From assembly GCA_029858565.1 (NCBI GenBank), contig JAOUEV010000012.1:278-64277 (forward strand): a DNA stretch of 64,000 nucleotides, given 5' to 3'. Under the pieces are notes generated by a model, which made no database searches, had not been told where the DNA came from, and saw nothing but the letters and a program-made list of their open reading frames with translations. The stretch's first letter is position 1. Each line of letters starts with the position of its first letter. The position numbers were made by a program, and so were the translations under genes. Positions 8,482 to 18,093 of this stretch are shown here, piece by piece. Origin of the DNA: Nitrospirota bacterium (GTDB lineage: Bacteria > Nitrospirota > UBA9217).

Positions 8482-9027
8482 AACTCCCGCCTTACGGAAA
8501 AAATGTGTTAAGAACAGCGAATATAAACAATTTGTTCTTGGAAGTCAAGCCTTTTTCAACTTCCATTGGCAAAATTTTCCGATATTCCTGCAACCCTATC
8601 AGCGCAATGCAAAGTTAGGCTTAAATAACAGCAAGTTAGCAGGAAACCGCCCTGCCCAGACTGTTTGAGGGCTCATGAAACCCTGCCTCTTTCCTTACAA
8701 ACTGGATGCGCCGGGGCACAAGCCGTGAGCAGTTATTGCGAAAAAACGGTGCAAGCTGCCTGTCTGCGGAGCACGAGGTTGCATTTTTGCCGGTCGCCAG
8801 CATAGGGCCTTGGCACGCTAAAGAGCCATGATTATTTATGGTAAATACCGCATCTTTTCCCTTGAACCAAAAGACTGAATATGGTAGTCTATGGGTCGCC
8901 TTTCAATAGGAAGGGCGAATTTCAAATCCACACGCATTCGGGACCTGTTGCAGGGTGTCCTGTCCACACGACAGGATCTGCTTTGGGGATGATCGGATGC
9001 GGAGGGACAACCTGAAGGAGGGACATC

Positions 9028-9816
9028 ATGTCCACGATCACGATGAAGGAGTTGCTGGAAGCGGGGGTTCACTTCGGCCATCAGGCCAAGCGCTGGAATC
9101 CCAAGATGAAGAAGTACATTTTTGGCGAGCGGAACGGGATCTATATCATCGATCTTCAGAAGACGCTCAAGCTTTTCAAGGAAGCCTACGATTTCGTCCG
9201 GGATTCCGCGGCCCAGGGCAAGGACATCCTGTTCATCGGGACCAAGAAGCAGGCCCAGGACGCGATCACCGAGGAAGCCAAGCGCTGCGGCATGTACTTT
9301 GTGTCGAGCCGCTGGCTTGGCGGCATGCTGACCAACTACGCAACAGTCAAGAAGAGCATCGACCGCCTCAAGAAGATCGAAAAAATGAAGGAAGACGGCA
9401 CCTACGACAAGCTCACCAAGAAAGAGGTCGCGGGCCTCGAAAAAGAGCGCACCAAGCTCGAAAAAATCCTGTGCGGGATCAAGACCATGCCCGCCCTTCC
9501 GTCGGTCATTTTCGTGATCGATCCCCGGAACGAGGCGATCGCGGTGCATGAGGCGAACAAGCTCGGCATTCCCGTGGTCGCGGTGGTGGACACGAACTGC
9601 GATCCCGACAACATCGACTACGTTATTCCCGGCAATGACGACGCCATCCGCGCCATCCGCCTCATGGCTTCCAAGGTCGCCGATGCGGTGATCGAGGGAC
9701 GCCAGGCGATCGCCAAGGAATCGGGCGAGGCAATGGAAGCGGCCAAGGCCGCGGGCGCGACCGTGCCTTCGGAAGTCCCGGCTGAAGCAGAGGGTGACAC
9801 GGCGGAAGAGGCGTAA
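9028..9816 (+). CDS. rpsB: 30S ribosomal protein S2
   Basis: [52 protein letters not shown] at 9014-9021. Confidence 0.95.
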
Positions 9817-9884
9817 ACCCGCATCCGGACCGGACCTAACCCGGTCGGGAGTTAGGATAATCACGAAAGGGGTTTTTGCATATC

Positions 9885-10754
9885 ATGGCTACGATTTCAG
9901 CATCTGCAGTCAAGGACCTGCGCGAGAAGACCGGCGTAGGCATGATGGAAGCGAAAAAAGCGCTTGAAGAGGCCGGCGGCGATTTTGAGAAGGCCGTCGA
10001 CATTCTGCGCAAGAAGGGGCTTTCCGCGGCCGCGAAAAAGGCAACGCGCGTGGCATCCGAAGGCATGATCGCGTCAGCGGTCCAGGGACCGGTGGGCGTG
10101 CTTATCGAAGTGAACAGCGAGACCGACTTTGTCGCGAAGAATCCCGAGTTCCAGCAGTTCGCCAAGGGGCTGGCCGAGCTTACTGCGGCCAAGGCCCCGG
10201 CCGATGTCTCGGCGCTTTCCCAGCTCACGCTGGACAATGAGAACGTCGAGGCGCGGCGCAACAGCCTGGTCCAGAAGATCGGCGAGAACATCTCGATCCG
10301 CAGGTTCGTACGCTACGACAATGCCGGGAATCTGGCGATCTACCTGCACGGAACCCGCATCGGCGTCATGGTGGACCTTGCTGGCGGCGACGAGCAGCTC
10401 GGCAGGGATATCGCAATGCATATCGCGGCGGCAAACCCGCCCTATCTTTCCCGGGAAACGGTTCCCGCCGACTCGGTCAGCCGCGAACGGGCGATCTACG
10501 AGGACCAGGCCAAGCAGACCGGCAAGCCGGCCGCCGTCATCTCCAAGATCGTGGACGGCAAGATGGAGAAGTTCTACAGCGACAACTGTCTCGTCGAGCA
10601 GATCTACATCAAGGACCCCGAGGGAAAGCAGAAGGTCAAGAACATCCTGAAGGGCGCTGAAATCAAGCGGTTCGTCCGCTTCCAGCTCGGCGAAGGCATC
10701 GAGAAGAAGAAGGAAGACTTCGCGGCCGAAGTCGCCGCACAGCTGAAGCAGTAA
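9885..10754 (+). CDS. tsf: Elongation factor Ts
   Basis: MATISASAVKDLREKTGVGMMEAKKALEEAGGDFEKAVDILRKKG (UBA-like N-terminus) plus the dimerisation domain. ATG at 9885; the track start 9876 is TTG. Confidence 0.95.
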   Translation: MATISASAVKDLREKTGVGMMEAKKALEEAGGDFEKAVDILRKKGLSAAAKKATRVASEGMIASAVQGPVGVLIEVNSETDFVAKNPEFQQFAKGLAELTAAKAPADVSALSQLTLDNENVEARRNSLVQKIGENISIRRFVRYDNAGNLAIYLHGTRIGVMVDLAGGDEQLGRDIAMHIAAANPPYLSRETVPADSVSRERAIYEDQAKQTGKPAAVISKIVDGKMEKFYSDNCLVEQIYIKDPEGKQKVKNILKGAEIKRFVRFQLGEGIEKKKEDFAAEVAAQLKQ

Positions 10755-10763
10755 GGTACCAAC

Positions 10764-11480
10764 ATGCCGTCACCCTATAAACGCATTTTGCTCAAACTGT
10801 CCGGCGAGGCCCTCATGGGCTCCCAGGGACATGGCATCGACCTCGCGGTGATCGACAAGATCGCTTCGGAGATCAAGGAGATCCACGAGCACGGCATCGA
10901 GATCGCGATCGTGATCGGCGGCGGCAACATCTTCCGGGGCCTTTCAGCCGCGGCAAAAGGCATGGAGCGCGCCAGCGCGGACTACATGGGCATGCTGGCC
11001 ACGGTGCTGAACGCCCTGGCGCTCCAGAACACCCTGGAAAACAAGGGCGTGGCGACCCGGGTCCAGACCGCCATCGAGATGCGCGAGCTCGCCGAGACCT
11101 ACATACGCCGCCGCGCCGTGCGGCACCTTGAGAAGAAGCGCATCGTCATCTTTGCCGCGGGCACGGGCAATCCTTATTTCACCACCGACACAGCCGCGGC
11201 GCTCCGCGCCATGGAGATCAACGCCAACGTGATCATGAAGGCGACCAAGGTGGACGGCGTGTACAGCGCCGACCCGGTGAAGGACCCGACGGCGGTCAAA
11301 TACGATCACCTGACCTATCTCGATGTGCTCCAGAAGAACCTGAAGGTCATGGATGCCGCCGCCATTTCACTCTGCATGGACAACAATCTTCCTATTATCG
11401 TGTTCAATCTCAACGTTCCCGGCAACATCAAGAAGATCGTCGCGGGCGAGTCGCTGGGAACGATTGTTTCCGGGAGATAA
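10764..11480 (+). CDS. pyrH: UMP kinase
   Basis: [15 protein letters not shown]...[11 protein letters not shown], 238 aa, in the conserved rpsB-tsf-pyrH-frr block. Confidence 0.95.
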
Positions 11481-11483
11481 GCT

Positions 11484-12047
11484 ATGGCCAATGAGCTGGT
11501 AAAAAAAGCCGATGACAAGATGCACAAGGCCCACGAGGTCCTGAAGAAGGAGTTCGCCGCTATCCGTACCGGCAGAGCGTCCCTGGGCATTCTGGACAAC
11601 ATCATCGTGGATTATTACGGAACGCCGACCCCTCTGAACCAGGTCGCCAACCTCTCTGTGCCTGATCCCCGGACCATCGCCATCCAGCCCTGGGAGGCCA
11701 AGATGCTCGGCGCGATCGAAAAGGCCATCCTGGCATCCGACGTGGGCGTCACGCCGACCAACGACGGCAAGAATATCCGCCTCTCCATGCCGCCGCTCAC
11801 CGAAGAGCGAAGACTGCAGATCGTGAAGCACGCGAAAAAGCTCGCCGAGGACACGAAGGTGGCCTGCAGGAACATCCGGCATGATGCGAACAACGATCTG
11901 AAGAAGAAAAGCAAGGACAAGGACGCCCACATCTCCGAGGACGAGGTAAAGAAGCTGCAGGATGAGATCCAGAAGCTCACGGACAACCACATCAAGAAGA
12001 TCGACGAACTCCTTGCCCATAAGGAGAAAGAGATCATGACCGTCTAG
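11484..12047 (+). CDS. frr: Ribosome recycling factor
   Basis: 187 aa; LKKEFAAIRTGRASLGILDNIIVDYYGTPTPLNQVANLSVPDPRTIAIQPWE. Confidence 0.95.
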   Translation: MANELVKKADDKMHKAHEVLKKEFAAIRTGRASLGILDNIIVDYYGTPTPLNQVANLSVPDPRTIAIQPWEAKMLGAIEKAILASDVGVTPTNDGKNIRLSMPPLTEERRLQIVKHAKKLAEDTKVACRNIRHDANNDLKKKSKDKDAHISEDEVKKLQDEIQKLTDNHIKKIDELLAHKEKEIMTV

Positions 12048-12079
12048 GCCCGGGGACTTTCCGGCCAAAGGAGCGGAAC

Positions 12080-12460
12080 ATGCTGAAAGTTCTTTTCCGT
12101 AAAAGTCTTTGTTGTTACCTTGCCCTCGCCCTTTTCGCACTATCCCTCCCCGCAACGGGATGGGCCATGTTCCTGCCTGCTGATACCGCGACCCTTCGGA
12201 CCGAGGACCTGTCCACGGTCCGAACGACCCTTGAATCGAATATCGTCAAACAGCGCCTTCTGGATTACGGCCTGACCGCCGAGCAGGTATCCGCTTCCGT
12301 GGACCGGCTCTCGGACGAGCAGCTTCACCGGCTTGCCACGAACATCGATTCTGTCCAGGCGGGCGGTGACGGTCTGGGAGGGGTGATCTTCATTTTGCTG
12401 GTCGTCATCATCGTCATTGTCGTGCTCGAAGCCACGGGGCATCATATCGTTGTCAAGTAA
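12080..12460 (+). CDS. Small secreted protein, PA2779-like family (paralog 1): signal peptide, ~60-aa domain, GG motif, C-terminal TM anchor with short basic tail
   Basis: Signal peptide ending ATGWA; conserved core KQRLLDYGLTAEQVSASVDRLSDEQLHRLATNIDSVQAGGDG, then GVIFILLVVIIVIVVL-EATGHHIVVK. Confidence 0.6.
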   Translation: MLKVLFRKSLCCYLALALFALSLPATGWAMFLPADTATLRTEDLSTVRTTLESNIVKQRLLDYGLTAEQVSASVDRLSDEQLHRLATNIDSVQAGGDGLGGVIFILLVVIIVIVVLEATGHHIVVK

Positions 12461-12504
12461 TGATCAGACGACCAGGTTGCTTTTTTAGACAAAGGAGACT
12501 TGTC

Positions 12505-12915
12505 ATGCAGTCCATCAGGAGAGCGTTCTACACAAAACCGCTGGCGATCTATCTGGTGCTGGCCCTGATCGCCATTTCAACTGCCGCGGGTCCGGCCGAA
12601 GCCATGTACATTCCTTCCGCGCCTGGCTCCGGGATCGCGCCAGCCCTCGACCGCGCCGCGGACCTGGCAGTCATTCAAAAGGCCCTGGAAACAAAGACCG
12701 TGCAGCAGCGCCTGGTGGACTACGGGCTCACTCCCGATGAGGCCATGGCCAAGCTGAACAACCTGCCTGACGACCAGCTGCACAAGCTCGCCACGAATAT
12801 TGACGAGGTCCAGGCAGGCGGCGACGTGGTCGGCACGCTGTTCGCTCTGATCATCATTGCGGCCCTCGTGGTATTTATCATCTTCCTGCTCGAGGGCAGG
12901 ATCCAGATCCGGTGA
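12505..12915 (+). CDS. Small secreted protein, PA2779-like family (paralog 2)
   Basis: AAGGAG RBS then ATG at 12505. Signal peptide ending GPAEA; core QQRLVDYGLTPDEAMAKLNNLPDDQLHKLATNIDEVQAGGDV, then TM LFALIIIAALVVFIIFLL-EGRIQIR. Clear paralog of the 12080 gene. Confidence 0.6.
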   Translation: MQSIRRAFYTKPLAIYLVLALIAISTAAGPAEAMYIPSAPGSGIAPALDRAADLAVIQKALETKTVQQRLVDYGLTPDEAMAKLNNLPDDQLHKLATNIDEVQAGGDVVGTLFALIIIAALVVFIIFLLEGRIQIR

Positions 12916-13508
12916 CCCTTTTCCCGAAATGTCGCAGAGCCGTGAGCAGCTATCCTGTTCACGGCTTTTTTTTCCTTCTCACGCTTCTTATCCTTGCCGG
13001 ATGCGCTGCGCCGGACTTCGAGTCCCTTCGACCGGGCATGGGCGACCATGGCCGGTACATCGACAACGTGCCCTTCTTCCGTCAGGGCGAGGCCGCCTGC
13101 GGACCGGCGGCACTTGCCGGAGTTCTGGAATATCGAGGGAAGCCGCGGCAGCTGGAGGAGATCACCCGGGCGGTCTATACGCCGAAGCTTGGCGGAACCC
13201 TGCCCATGGACATGGAGCGCTATGCAGGCGAGACAGGACTTGCGGCCAGTTCCCGCTCCGGGACCGTTGATGCGCTCAAGTCATTGATCAGGGATTCTTC
13301 CCCCGTGATCTGCCTGCTGGATCTGGGTTTTTGGGTCTACCGCCAACCCCACTATGTTCTGGTCATAGGCTACGATGACGCAAAACGCATGCTCATCATG
13401 CATGACGGCGCCACCCCGAACAGGATCATGGACGTTGATGCCTTTGACCGTGCCTGGTCCCGGGCAGGCCGGTGGATGCTGATCGTCAAGCCCGGGAAGG
13501 GATCATGA
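12912..13508 (+). CDS. Lipoprotein with peptidase C39-like (papain-fold cysteine peptidase) domain, PA2778-like
   Basis: Lipobox LAGC. Putative catalytic Cys in FRQGEAACGPAALAGVLEY and His in QPHYVLVIGYDD, spaced as in C39/bacteriocin-processing peptidase domains. Start overlaps the stop of the upstream small-protein gene. Confidence 0.6.
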   Translation: MTLFPKCRRAVSSYPVHGFFFLLTLLILAGCAAPDFESLRPGMGDHGRYIDNVPFFRQGEAACGPAALAGVLEYRGKPRQLEEITRAVYTPKLGGTLPMDMERYAGETGLAASSRSGTVDALKSLIRDSSPVICLLDLGFWVYRQPHYVLVIGYDDAKRMLIMHDGATPNRIMDVDAFDRAWSRAGRWMLIVKPGKGS

Positions 13509-14140
13509 TGACTTCGCTCCGATCTTTAGCAGCCATCCTCCTGCTCCTTGGCACTTTCTCCGGCTGCTCCCTGCCGAAGATCGTATTCCTCCATGACCCA
13601 TTATCAGCGGACGAGCACACGCAGCTCGGCATTGCCTATGATTCCCAGCAAAAGCACGACCTTGCGCTGGACCAGTTCCGGCTGGCGATCAAGAAGGATA
13701 AGAAACACCTGGCCGCATGGAAGCTTCTGGCAGACCTTTCCTACCGCCTGAACGACCTCGACAGTGCTGTCTCGGCCCTTGAAAAGGCTATAGAACTGGA
13801 GCCGGCCTCAGGCGACAGCCGGAACAACCTGGCATGGGTGTATCTTAAGCAGGGAACGAACCTCAAGCAGGCCGCGACGATACTTGAGGAAGCGCTGATG
13901 CTTCACCCGGCGAACAGGCCTTATTACCTCGACACCCTGGGCATGGTCCTGCTGAAGCTCGGGAAAACGAAGGAGGCGGTCTCGGCGCTTGAGGAGTCGG
14001 CTCGCACCCTGCCCGCTGACAAACCAGAGGTACTGGCGGAAGCCTACGACCACCTTGCCCAGGCATACGACGCTGCGGGTAATAAAGATGGTCACGAGCG
14101 CTCGCTGATCAAGGCGCAGGTTCTTCGCAACAAAAAGTAA
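13505..14140 (+). CDS. TPR-repeat lipoprotein
   Basis: Signal/lipobox FSGC; 3-4 TPR-like repeats (LGIAYDSQQKHDLALDQFRLAIKKD, AWKLLADLSYRLNDLDSAVSALEKAIELEP, ...). ATGATGA overlap with the peptidase gene stop suggests translational coupling. Confidence 0.7.
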   Translation: MMTSLRSLAAILLLLGTFSGCSLPKIVFLHDPLSADEHTQLGIAYDSQQKHDLALDQFRLAIKKDKKHLAAWKLLADLSYRLNDLDSAVSALEKAIELEPASGDSRNNLAWVYLKQGTNLKQAATILEEALMLHPANRPYYLDTLGMVLLKLGKTKEAVSALEESARTLPADKPEVLAEAYDHLAQAYDAAGNKDGHERSLIKAQVLRNKK

Positions 14141-14219
14141 GGGGCTTTCGTATTTTAGTTGAAATTGCTTGATCCCCATGCACAAAAACAATCAATCCTG
14201 GAACAGTAACCCTTTTTTT

Positions 14220-14385
14220 CGCGCAAAGCCGCAAAGGCGCAAAGAAAGGCAATCCTGATACCGGTAACTATCTTAAACCGGCTGAAATATGCGAACATTT
14301 TGAAGTCTTCACATTTCCCACGGTATCTTTTCTTGAGCCTTTGACATTGTTTTCTTTGCGCGCTTTGCGGCTTTGCGCGAGACAG
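14220..14385. repeat. Small inverted-repeat element A (MITE/REP-like): triple 8-mer GCGCAAAG arrays in inverted orientation flanking a ~105-bp AT-richer core
   Basis: Left arm gcgcaaagccgcaaaggcgcaaag (14221-14244) matches the reverse complement of right arm ctttgcgcgctttgcggctttgcgc (14354-14378) with a 16-bp perfect core. Ends in gcgagacag. Sits in the atpB upstream intergenic region. Confidence 0.6.
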
Positions 14386-14576
14386 AAGTTAGCCATTGTT
14401 TTCAACTTTACTGCGAATGAACAAAAAGTAACCTCCTCCCAGCCCTCTTCATTAGCAAAAATATATATATTCATTAGGAAATTTAATGGTCCCTTTCCGG
14501 GTTTAGGCTTGACAAAAAAGTGGGGTTACTGTAGATTTTTTTACCTAGACCGTGTAACCGATAAAGGAGTGCCCCT

Positions 14577-15251
14577 ATGAAAGAAGGACCGGTAGTCCTC
14601 CATAACTCGCTTGTTGCCGACCATGTGTCCTACACCTGGTTCACCATGGCGATCCTGATCGGCCTGGCGCTGATCGCGCGGGCTTCTCTCAAGCGGGATG
14701 CGCCCACGGGCGTTCAGAACGTGTTCGAGGTGATCTTTGACGGCCTGAACGGCTATGTGGACGAGATCATGGGACCCCATGGTCACCAGTATTTCACCCT
14801 GGTCGGCACGCTCTTTCTGTTCATCCTTACGGCGAACATCATCGGTCTCATCCCCGGATTCAACTCGCCCACGGCGAACATCAACACCACCGCGGCTCTG
14901 GCGATCACGGTCTTTGCAGCGACCCATATCATCGGCGTTGCTAAGCACGGTCTCTCCTACTTCAAGCATTTCATGGGGCCTGTTTCCTGGCTCGCGCCGC
15001 TCATGATCCCCATCGAGGTCATCAGCCATCTGGCCCGGCCGGTATCCCTCTCGTTCCGTCTTTTCGGCAATATGGTGGCAAAACATGAACTCATGCTCGT
15101 GCTTGCGGCCCTGGCCCCGTTCCTGGCTCCGGTGCCGATCCTCGGCCTGGGCCTGTTCGTGGCCTTTGTGCAGGCCGGCGTGTTCACGCTCTTGACCATG
15201 CTCTACCTCGCGGGCTCCATCGAGGAAGCCCACGGCAGCGACCATCACTAA
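14577..15251 (+). CDS. atpB: F0F1 ATP synthase subunit a
   Basis: 224 aa, 5-6 TM; conserved Arg region [20 protein letters not shown]. Confidence 0.9.
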
Positions 15252-15262
15252 TTCGCAATTAC

Positions 15263-15300
15263 GGTAGGGGCAGGTTTAAAACCTGCCCCTACAAATTTTT
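15263..15300 (+). other. Perfect 14-bp palindrome hairpin between atpB and atpE followed by a short T-run
   Basis: gtaggggcaggttt/aaacctgcccctac then aaatttttaaacc. Possibly an attenuator or processing site for atpB:atpE stoichiometry. Confidence 0.4.
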
Positions 15301-15406
15301 AAACCTCGGAGGATGTCGTTCCCGCAGACGCGGGAGTCCCCGGGAGGTAGCGCCCCGGCATGATTCCGGACAAGATTTGCACTTTTGGAGAAAGGAGGAC
15401 AACCTC

Positions 15407-15727
15407 ATGAAAAAGCTTGCTCTTCTCGTTATGTCCCTCAGCATGGTCCTCGTTGCCGCAGCTGCATTCGCGAGCGAGGGCGCCGCAGCTCCTGCTGCAG
15501 CCGCTGCGTCCACCGGCATTTCCGCCGCGGTCGCCGCGCTCTTCGCCATCGCCATCGCGGCGTTCGGCGGCAGCATCGGCATGGGCCTCAGCATCAGCAA
15601 GGCCGTTGAAGGCATCGCCCGCAACCCCGAGGCGTCCGGCAAGATCATGACCACCATGATCATCGGTCTGGCGCTGATCGAGTCGCTGGCCATCTACACC
15701 CTGGTCATCATCTTCATCAAGGCCTAA
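15407..15727 (+). CDS. atpE: F0F1 ATP synthase subunit c with N-terminal signal-like extension
   Basis: RBS AAAGGAGG then ATG at 15407. C-terminal ~75 aa is a canonical c subunit ([45 protein letters not shown]). The N-terminal ~30 aa [25 protein letters not shown] is hydrophobic and signal-peptide-like. Confidence 0.9.
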
Positions 15728-15750
15728 GGGTAGATATCGCAGTTCAGAAA

Positions 15751-15779
15751 GGGGACGGTGAAAACCGTCCCCTTTTTTT
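15751..15779 (+). terminator. Rho-independent terminator after atpE
   Basis: ggggacgg-tgaaaa-ccgtcccc hairpin followed by TTTTTTT. Confidence 0.8.
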
Positions 15780-15798
15780 GTGCCTCATCCAGCCCCTC

Positions 15799-15827
15799 TT
15801 GACTTGTGTCACGTGACGCGTTACAAT
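15799..15827 (+). promoter_or_regulatory. Sigma70-like promoter (TTGACT-17-TACAAT) with a 10-bp palindrome gtcacgtgac in the spacer (likely HigA operator)
   Basis: TTGACT at 15799-15804, 17-nt spacer, TACAAT at 15822-15827. The higB GTG start lies 7 nt downstream, which would make the transcript leaderless. Confidence 0.6.
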
Positions 15828-15833
15828 TCCCCA

Positions 15834-16115
15834 GTGATCAGATCGTTCAAGGACAGACATACCGAGCAGCTCTACATGACCGGAAAATCCAAACGGCTGC
15901 CCGGCGACATCCTGCAACGCGCAAGACGTCGGCTTGAATATATCGACCTTGCAACCTGTCTTGACGACTTGAAAGTTCCGCCCAGCAATCGACTGCATGC
16001 GCTTACCCGTAATCGAACCGGACAACATTCGATTGCGGTGAATGATCAATGGAGAATTTGCTTTCGGTTCAAAAAGGGCGATGCATTCGACGTAGAGATC
16101 ACTGATTACCATTGA
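15834..16115 (+). CDS. higB: Type II toxin HigB (RelE/ParE superfamily)
   Basis: VIRSFKDRHTEQLY...NDQWRICFRFKKGDAFDVEITDYH closely follows the Rts1 HigB pattern (MIKSFKHKGLKLLF...ANWRITFQFINGDAYILNYEDYH). GTG start chosen by homology. Confidence 0.8.
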   Translation: MIRSFKDRHTEQLYMTGKSKRLPGDILQRARRRLEYIDLATCLDDLKVPPSNRLHALTRNRTGQHSIAVNDQWRICFRFKKGDAFDVEITDYH

Positions 16116-16131
16116 GCGGAGAGAGAAAACC

Positions 16132-16437
16132 ATGAAGACACGGGAAAGAGCAATACGTCCGGTCCATCCAGGAGAGATGTTGCGGGAAGATTTTCTGCCT
16201 GATTACAACATGTCCGCATCATCTTTTGCCGCCGCGCTGGGCGTATCCCGCCAGACGGCCAACGAGCTTCTGAACGAGCGTCGGTCGGTCACGCCCGTGA
16301 TGGCCCTGAGCCTGTCCCGCTTATTCGGCAATACGCCTCTGTTCTGGCTGAACGCCCAGGCGGCCGTTGACCTATGGGAAGCCCAACGACGCAGCAAGGC
16401 CAAGCTGGCCCGCATACGACCGCTGACCGCTGCGTGA
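16132..16437 (+). CDS. higA: Antitoxin HigA (HTH XRE family)
   Basis: IRPVHPGEMLREDFLPDYNMSASSFAAALGVSRQTANELLNERRSVTPVMALSLSRLFGNTPLFWLNAQAAVDLWEA; toxin-upstream gene order typical of higBA. Confidence 0.85.
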   Translation: MKTRERAIRPVHPGEMLREDFLPDYNMSASSFAAALGVSRQTANELLNERRSVTPVMALSLSRLFGNTPLFWLNAQAAVDLWEAQRRSKAKLARIRPLTAA

Positions 16438-16442
16438 ACCAA

Positions 16443-16490
16443 GCCATAGCCATTTACACCCTGGTCATCATCTTATCAACGCAAGCCTGA
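16443..16490 (+). repeat. Decayed direct-repeat copy of the atpE 3' end, including a stop codon
   Basis: gccatagccatttacaccctggtcatcatcttatcaacgcaagcctga versus atpE 15689-15727 gccatctacaccctggtcatcatcttcatcaaggcctaa; 19 bp are identical (acaccctggtcatcatctt). Together they flank the higBA cassette. Confidence 0.75.
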
Positions 16491-16650
16491 TGAGCAAAGT
16501 GTCTTCGTGCCTGTTTTGTGAGAAATGGTTTTCTTTACGTTTACTTGTGTCTAGGGCAATGACTAATCTTTTTTCCCTTTTTCTCCCCATTCACCTGCGG
16601 TATAATAGCCCCTCGATATCATTGCTGAACAAAAGGAGTTGTTTCGAATT

Positions 16651-18093
16651 ATGAGTAATGTTCGCGTTCGTTTTGCCCCCTCCCCGACGGGCGCCCTGCA
16701 TATCGGCGGAGTCCGCACCGCCCTGTTCAACTGGCTCTTCGCCCGTCACCACAAGGGAACCTTCATCCTGCGCATCGAAGATACGGACCAGCAGCGGTCA
16801 ACCGACGAATCCATCCGTATCATCATCGACGGCATGAAATGGCTCGGCATGGACTGGGAAGAGGGACCGACCGTGCAGGCCGACGGAACGGTCAAGGGAT
16901 TTCGCCAGACCGAGCGCATGGACATCTACCGCGAGTATGCGGACCGGCTGCTGAAGGAAGGCAAAGCCTACTACTGCTACTGTTCGCCCGAGGAACTCGA
17001 CAGCCGCAGAAAAGCAGCCATGGCCGCTGGCAAACCGCCCAAGTACGACCGCACCTGCTTCGGCCGCAAGGAGCCCGTTTCCGGCAGGACCCCGGTGCTT
17101 CGTTTCCATTCGATCGACGAAGGACAGACCATTGTGCGCGACACGATCCGCGGCGCGGTCACTTTCGAGAACCAGCAGCTCGACGACCTGATCATCATGC
17201 GGTCCGACGGTTTTCCGACCTATAACTTCGCTGTTGTCGTGGACGACGTGACCATGAAGATCTCCCATGTGATCCGCGGTGACGACCACCTGAACAACAC
17301 GCCGCGCCAGATCCAGATCTACCGCGCTCTCGGGTTCGAACCGCCCGAGTTCGCCCATCTGCCCATGATCCTGGGTTCCGACAAGACCAAGCTGTCCAAG
17401 CGCCACGGCGCGACCGCAGTGACCGAATACAAGGACCTTGGTTACCTGCCCGAGGCCTTGATGAACTATCTCGCGCGGCTCGGCTGGTCCCATGGCGATC
17501 AGGAGGTCTTCTCCATTGCCGAACTGATCGAGAAGTTCACCCTCGACAACATCGGCAAAGCGCCCGCAGTGTTCAATCCGGAGAAGCTCGTCTGGCTGAA
17601 CCACCACTACATCCAGCAGTCTGACCCTGAGCGGCTTTCCGGCCTGGTGCTCGATCTCCTGAAAAAGGACGGCGTGGTTCAGGAAGGCAAGGAGCCCGAC
17701 GCAACATGGATGAACAAGCTCGTGAAGATCCTGACCGAACGGAGCCACACGCTGGTTGAGATGAAGACCTCGTCCCTGCCATTTCTCCAGGACAGCATCA
17801 CCATGGACGAAAAGGCCAGGGCCAAGCATCTGACGCCTGACGTGAAGCCGCTGCTTGAGGAACTTGCCGGGAAGCTCAAGTCGCTCGAACCTTGTTCCCA
17901 CGACGCAATCGAGAAGCTATTCAACGATATCGTGACGCCCAAGGGTGTGAAACTCGGCAAGCTGGCCCAACCGGTGCGCGTGGCCCTGACCGGCGGGACT
18001 GTCAGTCCGGGCATCTTCGACGTCATCGAGGTCATGGGGAAAGACCGGACCGTTGACCGCATCAACGCGGCGATCAAGATGATCAGCACATAG
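16651..18093 (+). CDS. gltX: Glutamate--tRNA ligase
   Basis: MSNVRVRFAPSPTGALHIGGVRTALFNWLFARHHKG (HIGH motif), KLSKRHG (KMSKS); 480 aa. AGGAG RBS; ATG at 16651 (the track start 16639 is TTG). A TATAAT -10 at 16603. Confidence 0.95.
   Translation: MSNVRVRFAPSPTGALHIGGVRTALFNWLFARHHKGTFILRIEDTDQQRSTDESIRIIIDGMKWLGMDWEEGPTVQADGTVKGFRQTERMDIYREYADRLLKEGKAYYCYCSPEELDSRRKAAMAAGKPPKYDRTCFGRKEPVSGRTPVLRFHSIDEGQTIVRDTIRGAVTFENQQLDDLIIMRSDGFPTYNFAVVVDDVTMKISHVIRGDDHLNNTPRQIQIYRALGFEPPEFAHLPMILGSDKTKLSKRHGATAVTEYKDLGYLPEALMNYLARLGWSHGDQEVFSIAELIEKFTLDNIGKAPAVFNPEKLVWLNHHYIQQSDPERLSGLVLDLLKKDGVVQEGKEPDATWMNKLVKILTERSHTLVEMKTSSLPFLQDSITMDEKARAKHLTPDVKPLLEELAGKLKSLEPCSHDAIEKLFNDIVTPKGVKLGKLAQPVRVALTGGTVSPGIFDVIEVMGKDRTVDRINAAIKMIST

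Follow-up and report, generated by a model that had tools for sequence, protein, structure and literature searches.

A conserved module of PA2779-family small proteins, a C39-type peptidase and a TPR lipoprotein, and its possible action at a Gly-Gly hinge

Introduction

What might a stand-alone C39-type cysteine peptidase do when its gene directly follows the genes of two small proteins that carry a signal-like segment at one end and, at the other, a Gly-Gly motif next to a putative membrane anchor? The question is raised by a stretch of 64,000 nucleotides from a Nitrospirota bacterium (GenBank assembly GCA_029858565.1, contig JAOUEV010000012.1, positions 278 to 64,277 of the forward strand; hereinafter the window, within which all coordinates of this locus are counted). 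In this window, the gene order rpsB-tsf-pyrH-frr is continued, on the same strand, by four genes, taken to be co-transcribed, that are denoted here S-A, S-B, P and T (12080-14140):

12080..12460, + strand: S-A, PA2779-family/DUF6627 small protein, 126 aa (open reading frame (ORF), NF033919, DUF6627)
12505..12915, + strand: S-B, paralogous PA2779-family protein, 136 aa (source-contig gene call, NF033919)
12912..13508, + strand: P, stand-alone C39-type cysteine-peptidase lipoprotein, 198 aa (PF13529, PF03412, NF033920 positions 2-146)
13505..14140, + strand: T, TPR lipoprotein, 211 aa (TPR Pfam matches, NF033920 positions 164-254)

The GTG start of P shares 4 nt with the stop of S-B, and the ATG of T shares 4 nt with the stop of P; for S-B, the mechanical ORF begins at 12460 and the source-contig gene call, with 136 aa, at 12505. 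An earlier note on this DNA, made from the sequence alone, had described four packed, partly overlapping genes after frr, and did so accurately, in coordinates as well as in content.

The S, P and T genes are best explained as a self-contained three-part envelope module. With respect to its function, the best reading, which we favor only tentatively and with a confidence somewhat short of an even chance, is that P together with T (P/T) processes the S proteins at the Gly-Gly hinge that precedes their anchor.

Protein families of the module

Both small proteins belong to a family that has already been cataloged. S-A and S-B, taken for paralogs in the earlier note, indeed share 42% identity (BLASTP E = 4e-31) and the same sequence layout, and both match the NCBI model NF033919, 'PA2779 family protein' (84.9 and 76 bits, respectively, against a cutoff of 40), and the Pfam family DUF6627 (PF20332; 40.5 and 35.8 bits against 27), as do all 38 diverse S proteins of related loci. 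Read from the sequence, the N-terminus of each consists of a basic start, a hydrophobic stretch and an A-x-A-type site, with signal-peptide-like residues 1-29 in S-A (ending in GWA before M) and 1-33 in S-B (ending in AEA before M). A predicted helical region of approximately 65 residues comes next, followed by QAGGD, 17-20 aliphatic residues and a short charged tail; GGD, the hydrophobic anchor and the tail occupy residues 95-97, residues 100-116 and EATGHHIVVK in S-A, and residues 105-107, residues 110-129 and EGRIQIR in S-B. This layout would place the helical domain in the periplasm, the C-terminal anchor in the inner membrane and the tail in the cytoplasm. To judge from the sequences, the locus thus displays the traits of the PA2779 family, namely a small protein (approximately 120-145 aa) that starts with a signal-like segment, has a hydrophobic helix at its C-terminus and is encoded beside a PA2778-type peptidase.

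The S family is large. When 1.84 billion representatives, grouped into 50%-identity clusters, were searched with a profile, 2,755 clusters reached an E-value of 1e-3 or better and 845 an E-value of 1e-10 or better, and the best 150 of the 2,755 are all single-domain proteins of approximately 100-170 aa. The S homologs comprise two old subtypes with distinct conserved tails, LEATGHH(V/I)(V/I)V(R/K) in the A-type and LLEGRIEIKKK in the B-type; close Nitrospirota relatives usually hold both subtypes, with A before B, and other phyla have one S copy with other tail types. When 38 S sequences are aligned across phyla, strict invariance is confined to one residue, G64 of a 'YGL' turn. No relatives of S with a solved structure were detected at E up to 5, and the AlphaFold (AF2) model of S is of low confidence, with a predicted local distance difference test score (pLDDT) of 58. 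In one related locus (L021), a third S copy has a divergent tail. Three metagenome contigs (L127, L136 and L145; e.g., L145 2049-2931) combine an A-type S with a 'tail-less' B variant that ends in ...QAGGVGGSGLIIVLLLVIIILLLI, with no peptidase in the 0.8-2.3 kb downstream.

The relationship of P and T to the second cataloged family is of a different form. Of the 255 positions of the NCBI model NF033920 ('PA2778 family cysteine peptidase'), P covers 2-146 (127.8 bits) and T covers 164-254 (34.1 bits). Because the peptidase and TPR halves are split here, P alone stays below the equivalog cutoff of 150 bits that applies to the full model; fused C39+TPR homologs score 163-327 bits over positions 1-255. 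Since P and T together span the PA2778 model, the window holds a split form of PA2778, which by these sequence matches is orthologous in content and not a member as one polypeptide. Single-chain P+T proteins occur in Gammaproteobacteria, Betaproteobacteria, Omnitrophota and Planctomycetia, and this fusion elsewhere shows that P and T act together. T itself is rich in TPRs, as indicated by its Pfam matches, carries the lipobox FSG-C21 and weakly resembles NlpI-type TPR lipoproteins.

In RefSeq, the adjoining pair is named PA2779/PA2778 by PGAP in Azoarcus sp. KH32C and Eleftheria terrae, and the PGAP pair is also present in Pseudomonas aeruginosa PAO1. The earlier note had likened the genes to these neighbors, and the matches to NF033919 and NF033920 bear this out. 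Its description of the system as undescribed holds in part: PGAP has already named the two genes and annotates them as neighbors, but no functional study of the PA2779 and PA2778 families was found in the literature searched. With the families and their adjacency already cataloged by NCBI and Pfam, the locus itself is no discovery; what is new here is the split enzyme, the duplicated S and a putative attenuator hairpin embedded in the peptidase gene.

The peptidase P

P matches PF13529 (Peptidase_C39_2; 49.8 bits) and PF03412 (Peptidase_C39; 37.1 bits), both above the gathering score. The following residues are invariant in 30 homologs of P:

Residue 31 of P, + strand: Cys of the lipobox LAG-C31
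13083-13085, + strand: Gln58, the oxyanion-hole residue
13098-13100, + strand: catalytic Cys63 (QGEAAC63GPAAL), aligned with Cys17 of ComA
13350-13352, + strand: His147 (PH147YVLVIGYDD), aligned with His96 of ComA
13404-13406, + strand: Asp165 (HDG), the third residue of the catalytic set

The Asp of P aligns two positions away from that of ComA, in a loop. A search of the PDB with a profile of P homologs led to the peptidase domain of ComA and to LahT150, and the AF2 model of P (pLDDT 84.6) retrieves the same group in Foldseek, with predicted similarity to PCAT1, ComA and LahT150 at E-values of 1e-8 to 1e-7 and, for LahT150, a template modeling (TM) score of 0.83 at 25% identity. Further neighbors of the modeled fold are the C39-like protein 3erv and the endoisopeptidase PeiR, as well as staphopain-staphostatin, 9l5u, CdiA-CT/CdiI and the transpeptidase phytochelatin synthase. 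Given the C39 family matches, the invariant residues, and the alignment and predicted fold shared with ComA and LahT150, it is plausible that P is an active C39-type cysteine peptidase, and the Cys and His that the earlier note had singled out in this gene are the very residues that align with the ComA pair.

The lipoboxes of P and T agree with the lipoprotein calls made earlier for both proteins, and the lipoprotein signal LAG-C31 implies that P is exposed to the periplasm. Approximately a dozen other P homologs have apparently plain, non-lipoprotein signal peptides; hence the localization of the enzyme may differ between lineages.

The Gly-Gly hinge of the small proteins

If P is a peptidase of the C39 type, the most conspicuous candidate site in its neighborhood is the Gly-Gly that separates the helical domain of S from the anchor:

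12362..12370, + strand: G95-G96-D97 hinge of S-A, proposed scissile region (column frequencies, AF2 helix break)
12817-12825, + strand: equivalent GGD hinge of S-B (residues 105-107)

Among 150 diverse S representatives drawn from the 50%-identity clusters, position 95 is G in 132 and A in 18 (G88%), position 96 is G in 134, A in 7, S in 5, Q in 2 and E in 1 (G89%), and position 97 is D in 102, G in 13 and N in 10. In a 24-residue segment that reaches 2 residues into the hydrophobic core, literal GG is found in 122 of 147 sequences and [A/G]-G in 143 of 147. The Gly-Gly that the earlier note had considered invariant is therefore nearly so, and it does sit at the hinge of the anchor, but A and S occur in its place. 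Both are substitutions that are tolerated at C39 double-glycine sites.

Aliphatic residues recur at positions 92, 89, 85 and 82, and H83, A86, D79 and D90 are also highly conserved; the hinge thus follows a conserved amphipathic helix, and an amphipathic helix ending in GG is a feature that S shares with double-glycine leaders. The AF2 model of S, for what its confidence allows, places a helix break with pLDDT <50 at residues 91-96, that is, at the Gly-Gly, between the last helix of the ectodomain and the predicted anchor helix. For the sites of C39 peptidases themselves, the FapD study (PMC5557850) gives GG and sometimes GA. The likeness of 'LSDEQL...AGG' to Nif11, NHLP and double-glycine leaders prompted a comparison with these families as well; homology of the S ectodomain to such leaders finds no HMM (hidden Markov model) support among the matches listed for 38 S sequences at E up to 10, and we retain it as a motif-level analogy.

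Gene linkage and phyletic distribution

One genome per species was scanned with the P alignment, which yielded 80 loci. These come from Nitrospirota, Omnitrophota, several orders of Thermodesulfobacteriota/'Deltaproteobacteria', Gamma-, Beta- and Alphaproteobacteria, and further from Elusimicrobia, Planctomycetia, Armatimonadota, Methylomirabilota and Nitrospinota, more than 10 phyla in total; isolates among them include Thiorhodospira sibirica and Desulfobulbus alkaliphilus. Upstream sequence of at least 450 nt is available for 76 of the loci; in 74 of them, P is immediately preceded, on its own strand, by S, as a single copy in 49, as two copies in 23 and as three in 2. A truncated S makes L061 the 75th such locus, and the one remaining, L081, has no S. 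In nearly all loci, T either follows P immediately or forms one protein with it. In L070 and L081, NW-CGP replaces the usual Q-x4-CGP, and in L070 S sits downstream of the TPR gene; by their sequences, the two probably represent a neighboring C39-like subfamily.

The linkage was also assessed from the side of the small protein, with a narrower S alignment that biases the sample towards relatives with the SDEQxHxLA motif: P is found downstream of S in 41 of 46 metagenome loci with at least 300 nt of downstream sequence. The co-occurrence of the small proteins and the peptidase, which the earlier note had put forward as a check, is thus strong in both directions. Clustering of the neighboring ORFs identified S, P and T as the only conserved neighbors across the 80 loci; there is no fourth conserved gene, and no ABC (ATP-binding cassette) transporter, membrane sortase or type VI secretion system (T6SS) gene is conserved among them. 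The linkage to frr is limited to 16 loci.

This gene context bears directly on a toxin reading, according to which the PA2778-type peptidase is a type VI secretion toxin and the neighboring small gene encodes its immunity protein. In a transposon-insertion preprint on P. aeruginosa (bioRxiv 10.1101/733030), PA2778 is listed as a putative enzymatic toxin candidate, and its small neighbor gene is insertion-depleted under active H1-T6SS; the listing is not followed up. The reading nevertheless appears very improbable to us, with P and T carrying Sec/lipoprotein signals unlike those of cytoplasmically loaded T6SS effectors, with neither a T6SS gene nor any other gene conserved near the module in the 80 loci, and with a housekeeping context after frr, a distribution that includes Nitrospirota, Omnitrophota and Elusimicrobia, and no PADLOC matches. 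On the lipoprotein signals of P and T and the lack of a conserved T6SS neighbor, identification of the module as a type VI effector-immunity pair was rejected. Likewise rejected was an anti-phage defense system: PADLOC gave no match for S-A, S-B or P, and for T it gave weak TPR-type matches only.

An attenuator-like hairpin and the relative expression of S and P/T

Between the S genes and the catalytic part of P, the transcript can form an RNA element:

12936..12976, + strand: terminator-like hairpin with a 14-bp stem and a 5-nt loop, followed by U8 (folding, covariation)

The hairpin lies approximately 20 nt past the S-B stop, within codons 9-22 of P, that is, in the signal-peptide region, and has a free energy of -22.5 kcal/mol (z = -4.2). 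In 32 of 76 loci, a comparable hairpin with a T-run is placed past the S stop and ahead of the catalytic Cys codon; at 2.1 per kb, such hairpins are approximately 5-fold denser at the junction than over the plus strand of these loci as a whole (0.40 per kb). Most close Nitrospirota relatives have the hairpin, as do some Gammaproteobacteria and Omnitrophota (S-P junctions of L003-L031, L050, L052, L065 and L066). In 19 Nitrospirota loci, the stem covaries, with compensatory changes in 7 of 12 pairs, and this conserved pairing accounts for the odd conservation of 'AV...VHGLF' in the signal peptide of P. No Rfam family matched the hairpin at E up to 1. We infer that it acts as an intrinsic terminator or attenuator that keeps transcription of P/T far below that of S.

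In Pseudomonas stutzeri DSM4166, a PA2779-family gene is one of 39 genes that rank in the top 3% by expression in each of the four RNA-seq samples, the data being rank lists (PMC10155442). The covarying hairpin and this high expression together suggest that S is made in large excess over P/T. An abundant S protein and a scarce enzyme fit a substrate and its enzyme better than a 1:1 complex, and the arrangement of one to three tandem S copies before a single enzyme gene, which is the layout of precursor-plus-processing-enzyme operons, supports S as the substrate.

These same observations have to be weighed against a different role of S, not as substrate but as a membrane-anchored partner of the peptidase, be it a docking subunit, a substrate-mimicking inhibitor or an 'immunity' protein, which would hold or silence P/T at the inner membrane while P/T cuts other envelope proteins, much as in the TPR-adaptor/protease pairs NlpI-Prc and LbcA-CtpA. 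For a stoichiometric partner of a scarce enzyme, one to three S copies, an attenuator after S and top-3% expression would be extravagant, but high expression is common for inhibitors and immunity proteins. The tight S-P-T linkage fits a complex equally well, and the conservation of the S anchor and tail by subfamily, the papain-like proteases with dedicated inhibitor or immunity proteins among the fold neighbors of P (staphopain-staphostatin, 9l5u and CdiA-CT/CdiI) and the weak likeness of T to NlpI-type TPR lipoproteins would all be in keeping with it. Docking, however, needs no small-residue hinge with the G/A/S tolerance of C39 sites, and no alternative substrate candidate is conserved near the module in the 80 loci. 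On balance, we consider a partner role of S unlikely, though it is the main rival to a substrate role.

The abundance of S, which in P. stutzeri is like that of structural envelope proteins, and the three-part layout of its C-terminus, with a motif, a hydrophobic helix and a basic tail as in sorting signals, also bring up the possibility, a stronger version of the reading in the earlier note, that P is a sortase-like transpeptidase. It would move the S ectodomain, cut at G-G, to an acceptor in the envelope, for example peptidoglycan or a lipid, and would thus constitute a diderm sorting or anchoring system. Cysteine peptidases act via a transferable acyl-enzyme, phytochelatin synthase is among the fold neighbors of P, and lipoboxes without Asp at +2 would suit an enzyme near the wall or the outer membrane. 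Nevertheless, we regard such transfer as improbable: GlyGly-CTERM, PEP-CTERM and other sorting-signal HMMs are not among the matches listed, the tail is found on one small family and not on varied cargo, its conservation by subfamily goes beyond the needs of a signal, no acceptor-related gene is linked, and we know of no C39 member with transfer activity.

Membership in the known C-terminal sorting systems was rejected on similar grounds. The GlyGly-CTERM and PEP-CTERM HMMs are not among the matches listed for the 38 diverse S proteins and no membrane enzyme is linked, and an HMM and pattern scan of the 912 ORFs of the window for the tail as a tag on other cargo returned only S-A and S-B. The comparison with GlyGly-CTERM/rhombosortase or PEP-CTERM/exosortase drawn in the earlier note is accordingly not supported; besides lacking an HMM match and a linked membrane sortase, S is a single-domain family whose anchor and tail are kept by subfamily, unlike a disposable signal.

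Proposed mechanism

Thus, we return to the processing of S by P/T. The family assignments, the catalytic residues and fold of P, the obligate gene linkage, the P-T fusion in other lineages, the conservation of the hinge and the RNA hairpin are all shown by the present analysis. The catalytic set, the near-obligate linkage, the fusion and the [G/A]-[G/A/S]-D hinge favor a dedicated enzyme-substrate module.

In the model that we propose, S-A and S-B would be exported by Sec, lose the signal peptide and be held in the inner membrane by the C-terminal helix, the helical domain of approximately 65 residues facing the periplasm and the last 7-10 residues forming a cytoplasmic tail. P would be an active papain-like C39 cysteine peptidase lipoprotein and T its substrate-binding partner. 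P/T would recognize the last amphipathic helix of S (LSDEQxHxLAxxxDxL) and might cut at the hinge beside the membrane, between G-G and D, such that the ectodomain is freed from its anchor peptide. S would be present in large excess, since the hairpin near the start of the P gene would act as an attenuator and hold P/T low. After the cut, the ectodomain may be shed, and the 30-residue peptide would stay in the membrane. The topology of S, its role as substrate, the position of the cut and the later fate of the products are the parts of this model that we infer. Its fullest version would be a new kind of envelope protein processing in diderms, in which a periplasmic, TPR-assisted C39 peptidase cuts an abundant, Sec-exported, anchored S between G-G and D and then sheds the ectodomain, so that a functional membrane peptide of 30 residues is left, or transfers it, sortase-like, to the cell wall or outer membrane, with conservation from Nitrospirota to P. 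aeruginosa; this version we consider distinctly unlikely.

Several observations weigh against processing of S by P/T. In E. coli, a lipoprotein without Asp after the lipobox Cys goes to the outer membrane, and in 57 P homologs this residue is A, S, T or G, never Asp; by the E. coli rule, P would be an outer-membrane lipoprotein with a tether of approximately 17 residues, far from a site at the inner membrane, although sorting rules may differ in these phyla. The hydrophobic residues of the S helix are spaced one residue off the canonical -4/-7/-12/-15, with either Gly taken as P1, and double-glycine, Nif11 and NHLP leader HMMs are not among the 25 most often matched families listed for the 38 diverse S proteins at E up to 10. 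The anchor and tail of S are kept by subfamily, which argues that the anchor is not merely discarded. Furthermore, the AF2 model of S is poor (pLDDT 58), 5 of the 46 S-ascertained loci have no P within reach, three of these five having the tail-less B variant, and the hairpin is limited to the 32 of 76 loci noted above and was not found in two betaproteobacterial isolate loci.

What follows from the module depends on which role of S is correct. If S is the substrate of the peptidase, it would give periplasmic stand-alone C39 peptidases their first defined class of substrates and would also point to an unrecognized abundant component of the envelope; if S does no more than dock the peptidase, what remains is a conserved operon that is correctly annotated but without an assigned function. 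In either case, the module is widespread in Gram-negative bacteria, extends over more than 10 phyla and approximately 2,755 S clusters at 50% identity, and includes cultured Pseudomonas, Azoarcus, Thiorhodospira and Desulfobulbus. The evidence on the mechanism is circumstantial, but the module is present in model organisms, is highly expressed and is directly testable in P. aeruginosa PAO1.

Comparison with known systems

Compared with the PA2779/PA2778 pair (NF033919/DUF6627 and NF033920), the module has the same families in the same order, and P+T span the whole PA2778 model. The differences are that the peptidase and TPR halves are here separate, overlapping genes, that S is duplicated into the old subtypes A and B, and that a terminator-like hairpin lies inside the peptidase gene.

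ComA, PCAT1 and LahT/LahT150 (PDB 3k8u, 4ry2/6v9z and 6mpz) share the predicted fold and the catalytic residues of P, and their substrates, like the putative substrate here, have an amphipathic helix ending in G-[G/A/S], with precursor-like genes in tandem before the enzyme. In contrast to these cytoplasmic exporter domains, P is a Sec-exported periplasmic lipoprotein with a TPR partner. The 'leader' would here comprise a signal peptide and a folded domain of 65 residues, with no leader HMM among the matches listed, and the 'core', a membrane helix, would remain in the producer. P does not belong to the PCAT/AMS exporters: its 198 aa make up a lipoprotein precursor, the 80 loci show no conserved ABC transporter, and the TIGR03796 match of P (22.7 bits, where the cutoff is 853) is confined to the peptidase domain.

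A closer parallel in terms of localization is FapD of the Pseudomonas Fap amyloid system. Like P, it is a stand-alone, Sec-exported C39 peptidase, and it must be catalytically active in the periplasm, which provides a precedent, and its substrate is presumed, but not proven, to be encoded in the same operon (PMC5557850). Unlike that system, the present locus has no fap genes; its peptidase is instead accompanied by a TPR protein and by small membrane proteins of a different, dedicated family.

The LPXTG/sortase, PEP-CTERM/exosortase and GlyGly-CTERM/rhombosortase systems resemble the module in the layout of the substrate, with a signal peptide, a motif, a hydrophobic helix and a basic tail. 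The enzyme is where they part: P differs from theirs in fold and is no integral membrane protein. The tail, moreover, is confined to one single-domain family encoded beside the enzyme and is conserved by subfamily.

In NlpI-Prc and LbcA-CtpA, a TPR lipoprotein adaptor serves a periplasmic serine C-terminal-processing protease, and these pairs act on peptidoglycan hydrolases. The pairing of a TPR lipoprotein with a periplasmic protease is common to these systems and the module described here. In the module, however, a C39 cysteine peptidase takes the place of the serine protease; in many lineages it forms a single chain with the TPRs, and it is tied to a dedicated small protein. Relative to characterized systems, the module would be a variant of C39 double-glycine processing that has been moved to the periplasm, is TPR-assisted and has a membrane-anchored 'substrate'.

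Genomic neighborhood of the locus

The genes that flank the module in the window are:

11484-12047: frr, the gene directly before S-A
15780-16115: HigB-like toxin ORF (PF05015, 62 bits)
16132-16437: HigA-like helix-turn-helix antitoxin

On the 3' side, T is followed by a 436-nt spacer, in which the GC content falls to 0.46 (14000-14580), and then by atpB and atpE. A sigma-70-like promoter match that we rate as good (TTGACA, 17 nt, TAGATT; 14509-14537) lies just 5' of atpB. Within the stretch examined (9000-18000), atpB and atpE are isolated from other ATP synthase genes. The HigB-like ORF, which is missing from the source-contig gene calls, and the HigA-like gene lie together between atpE and gltX.

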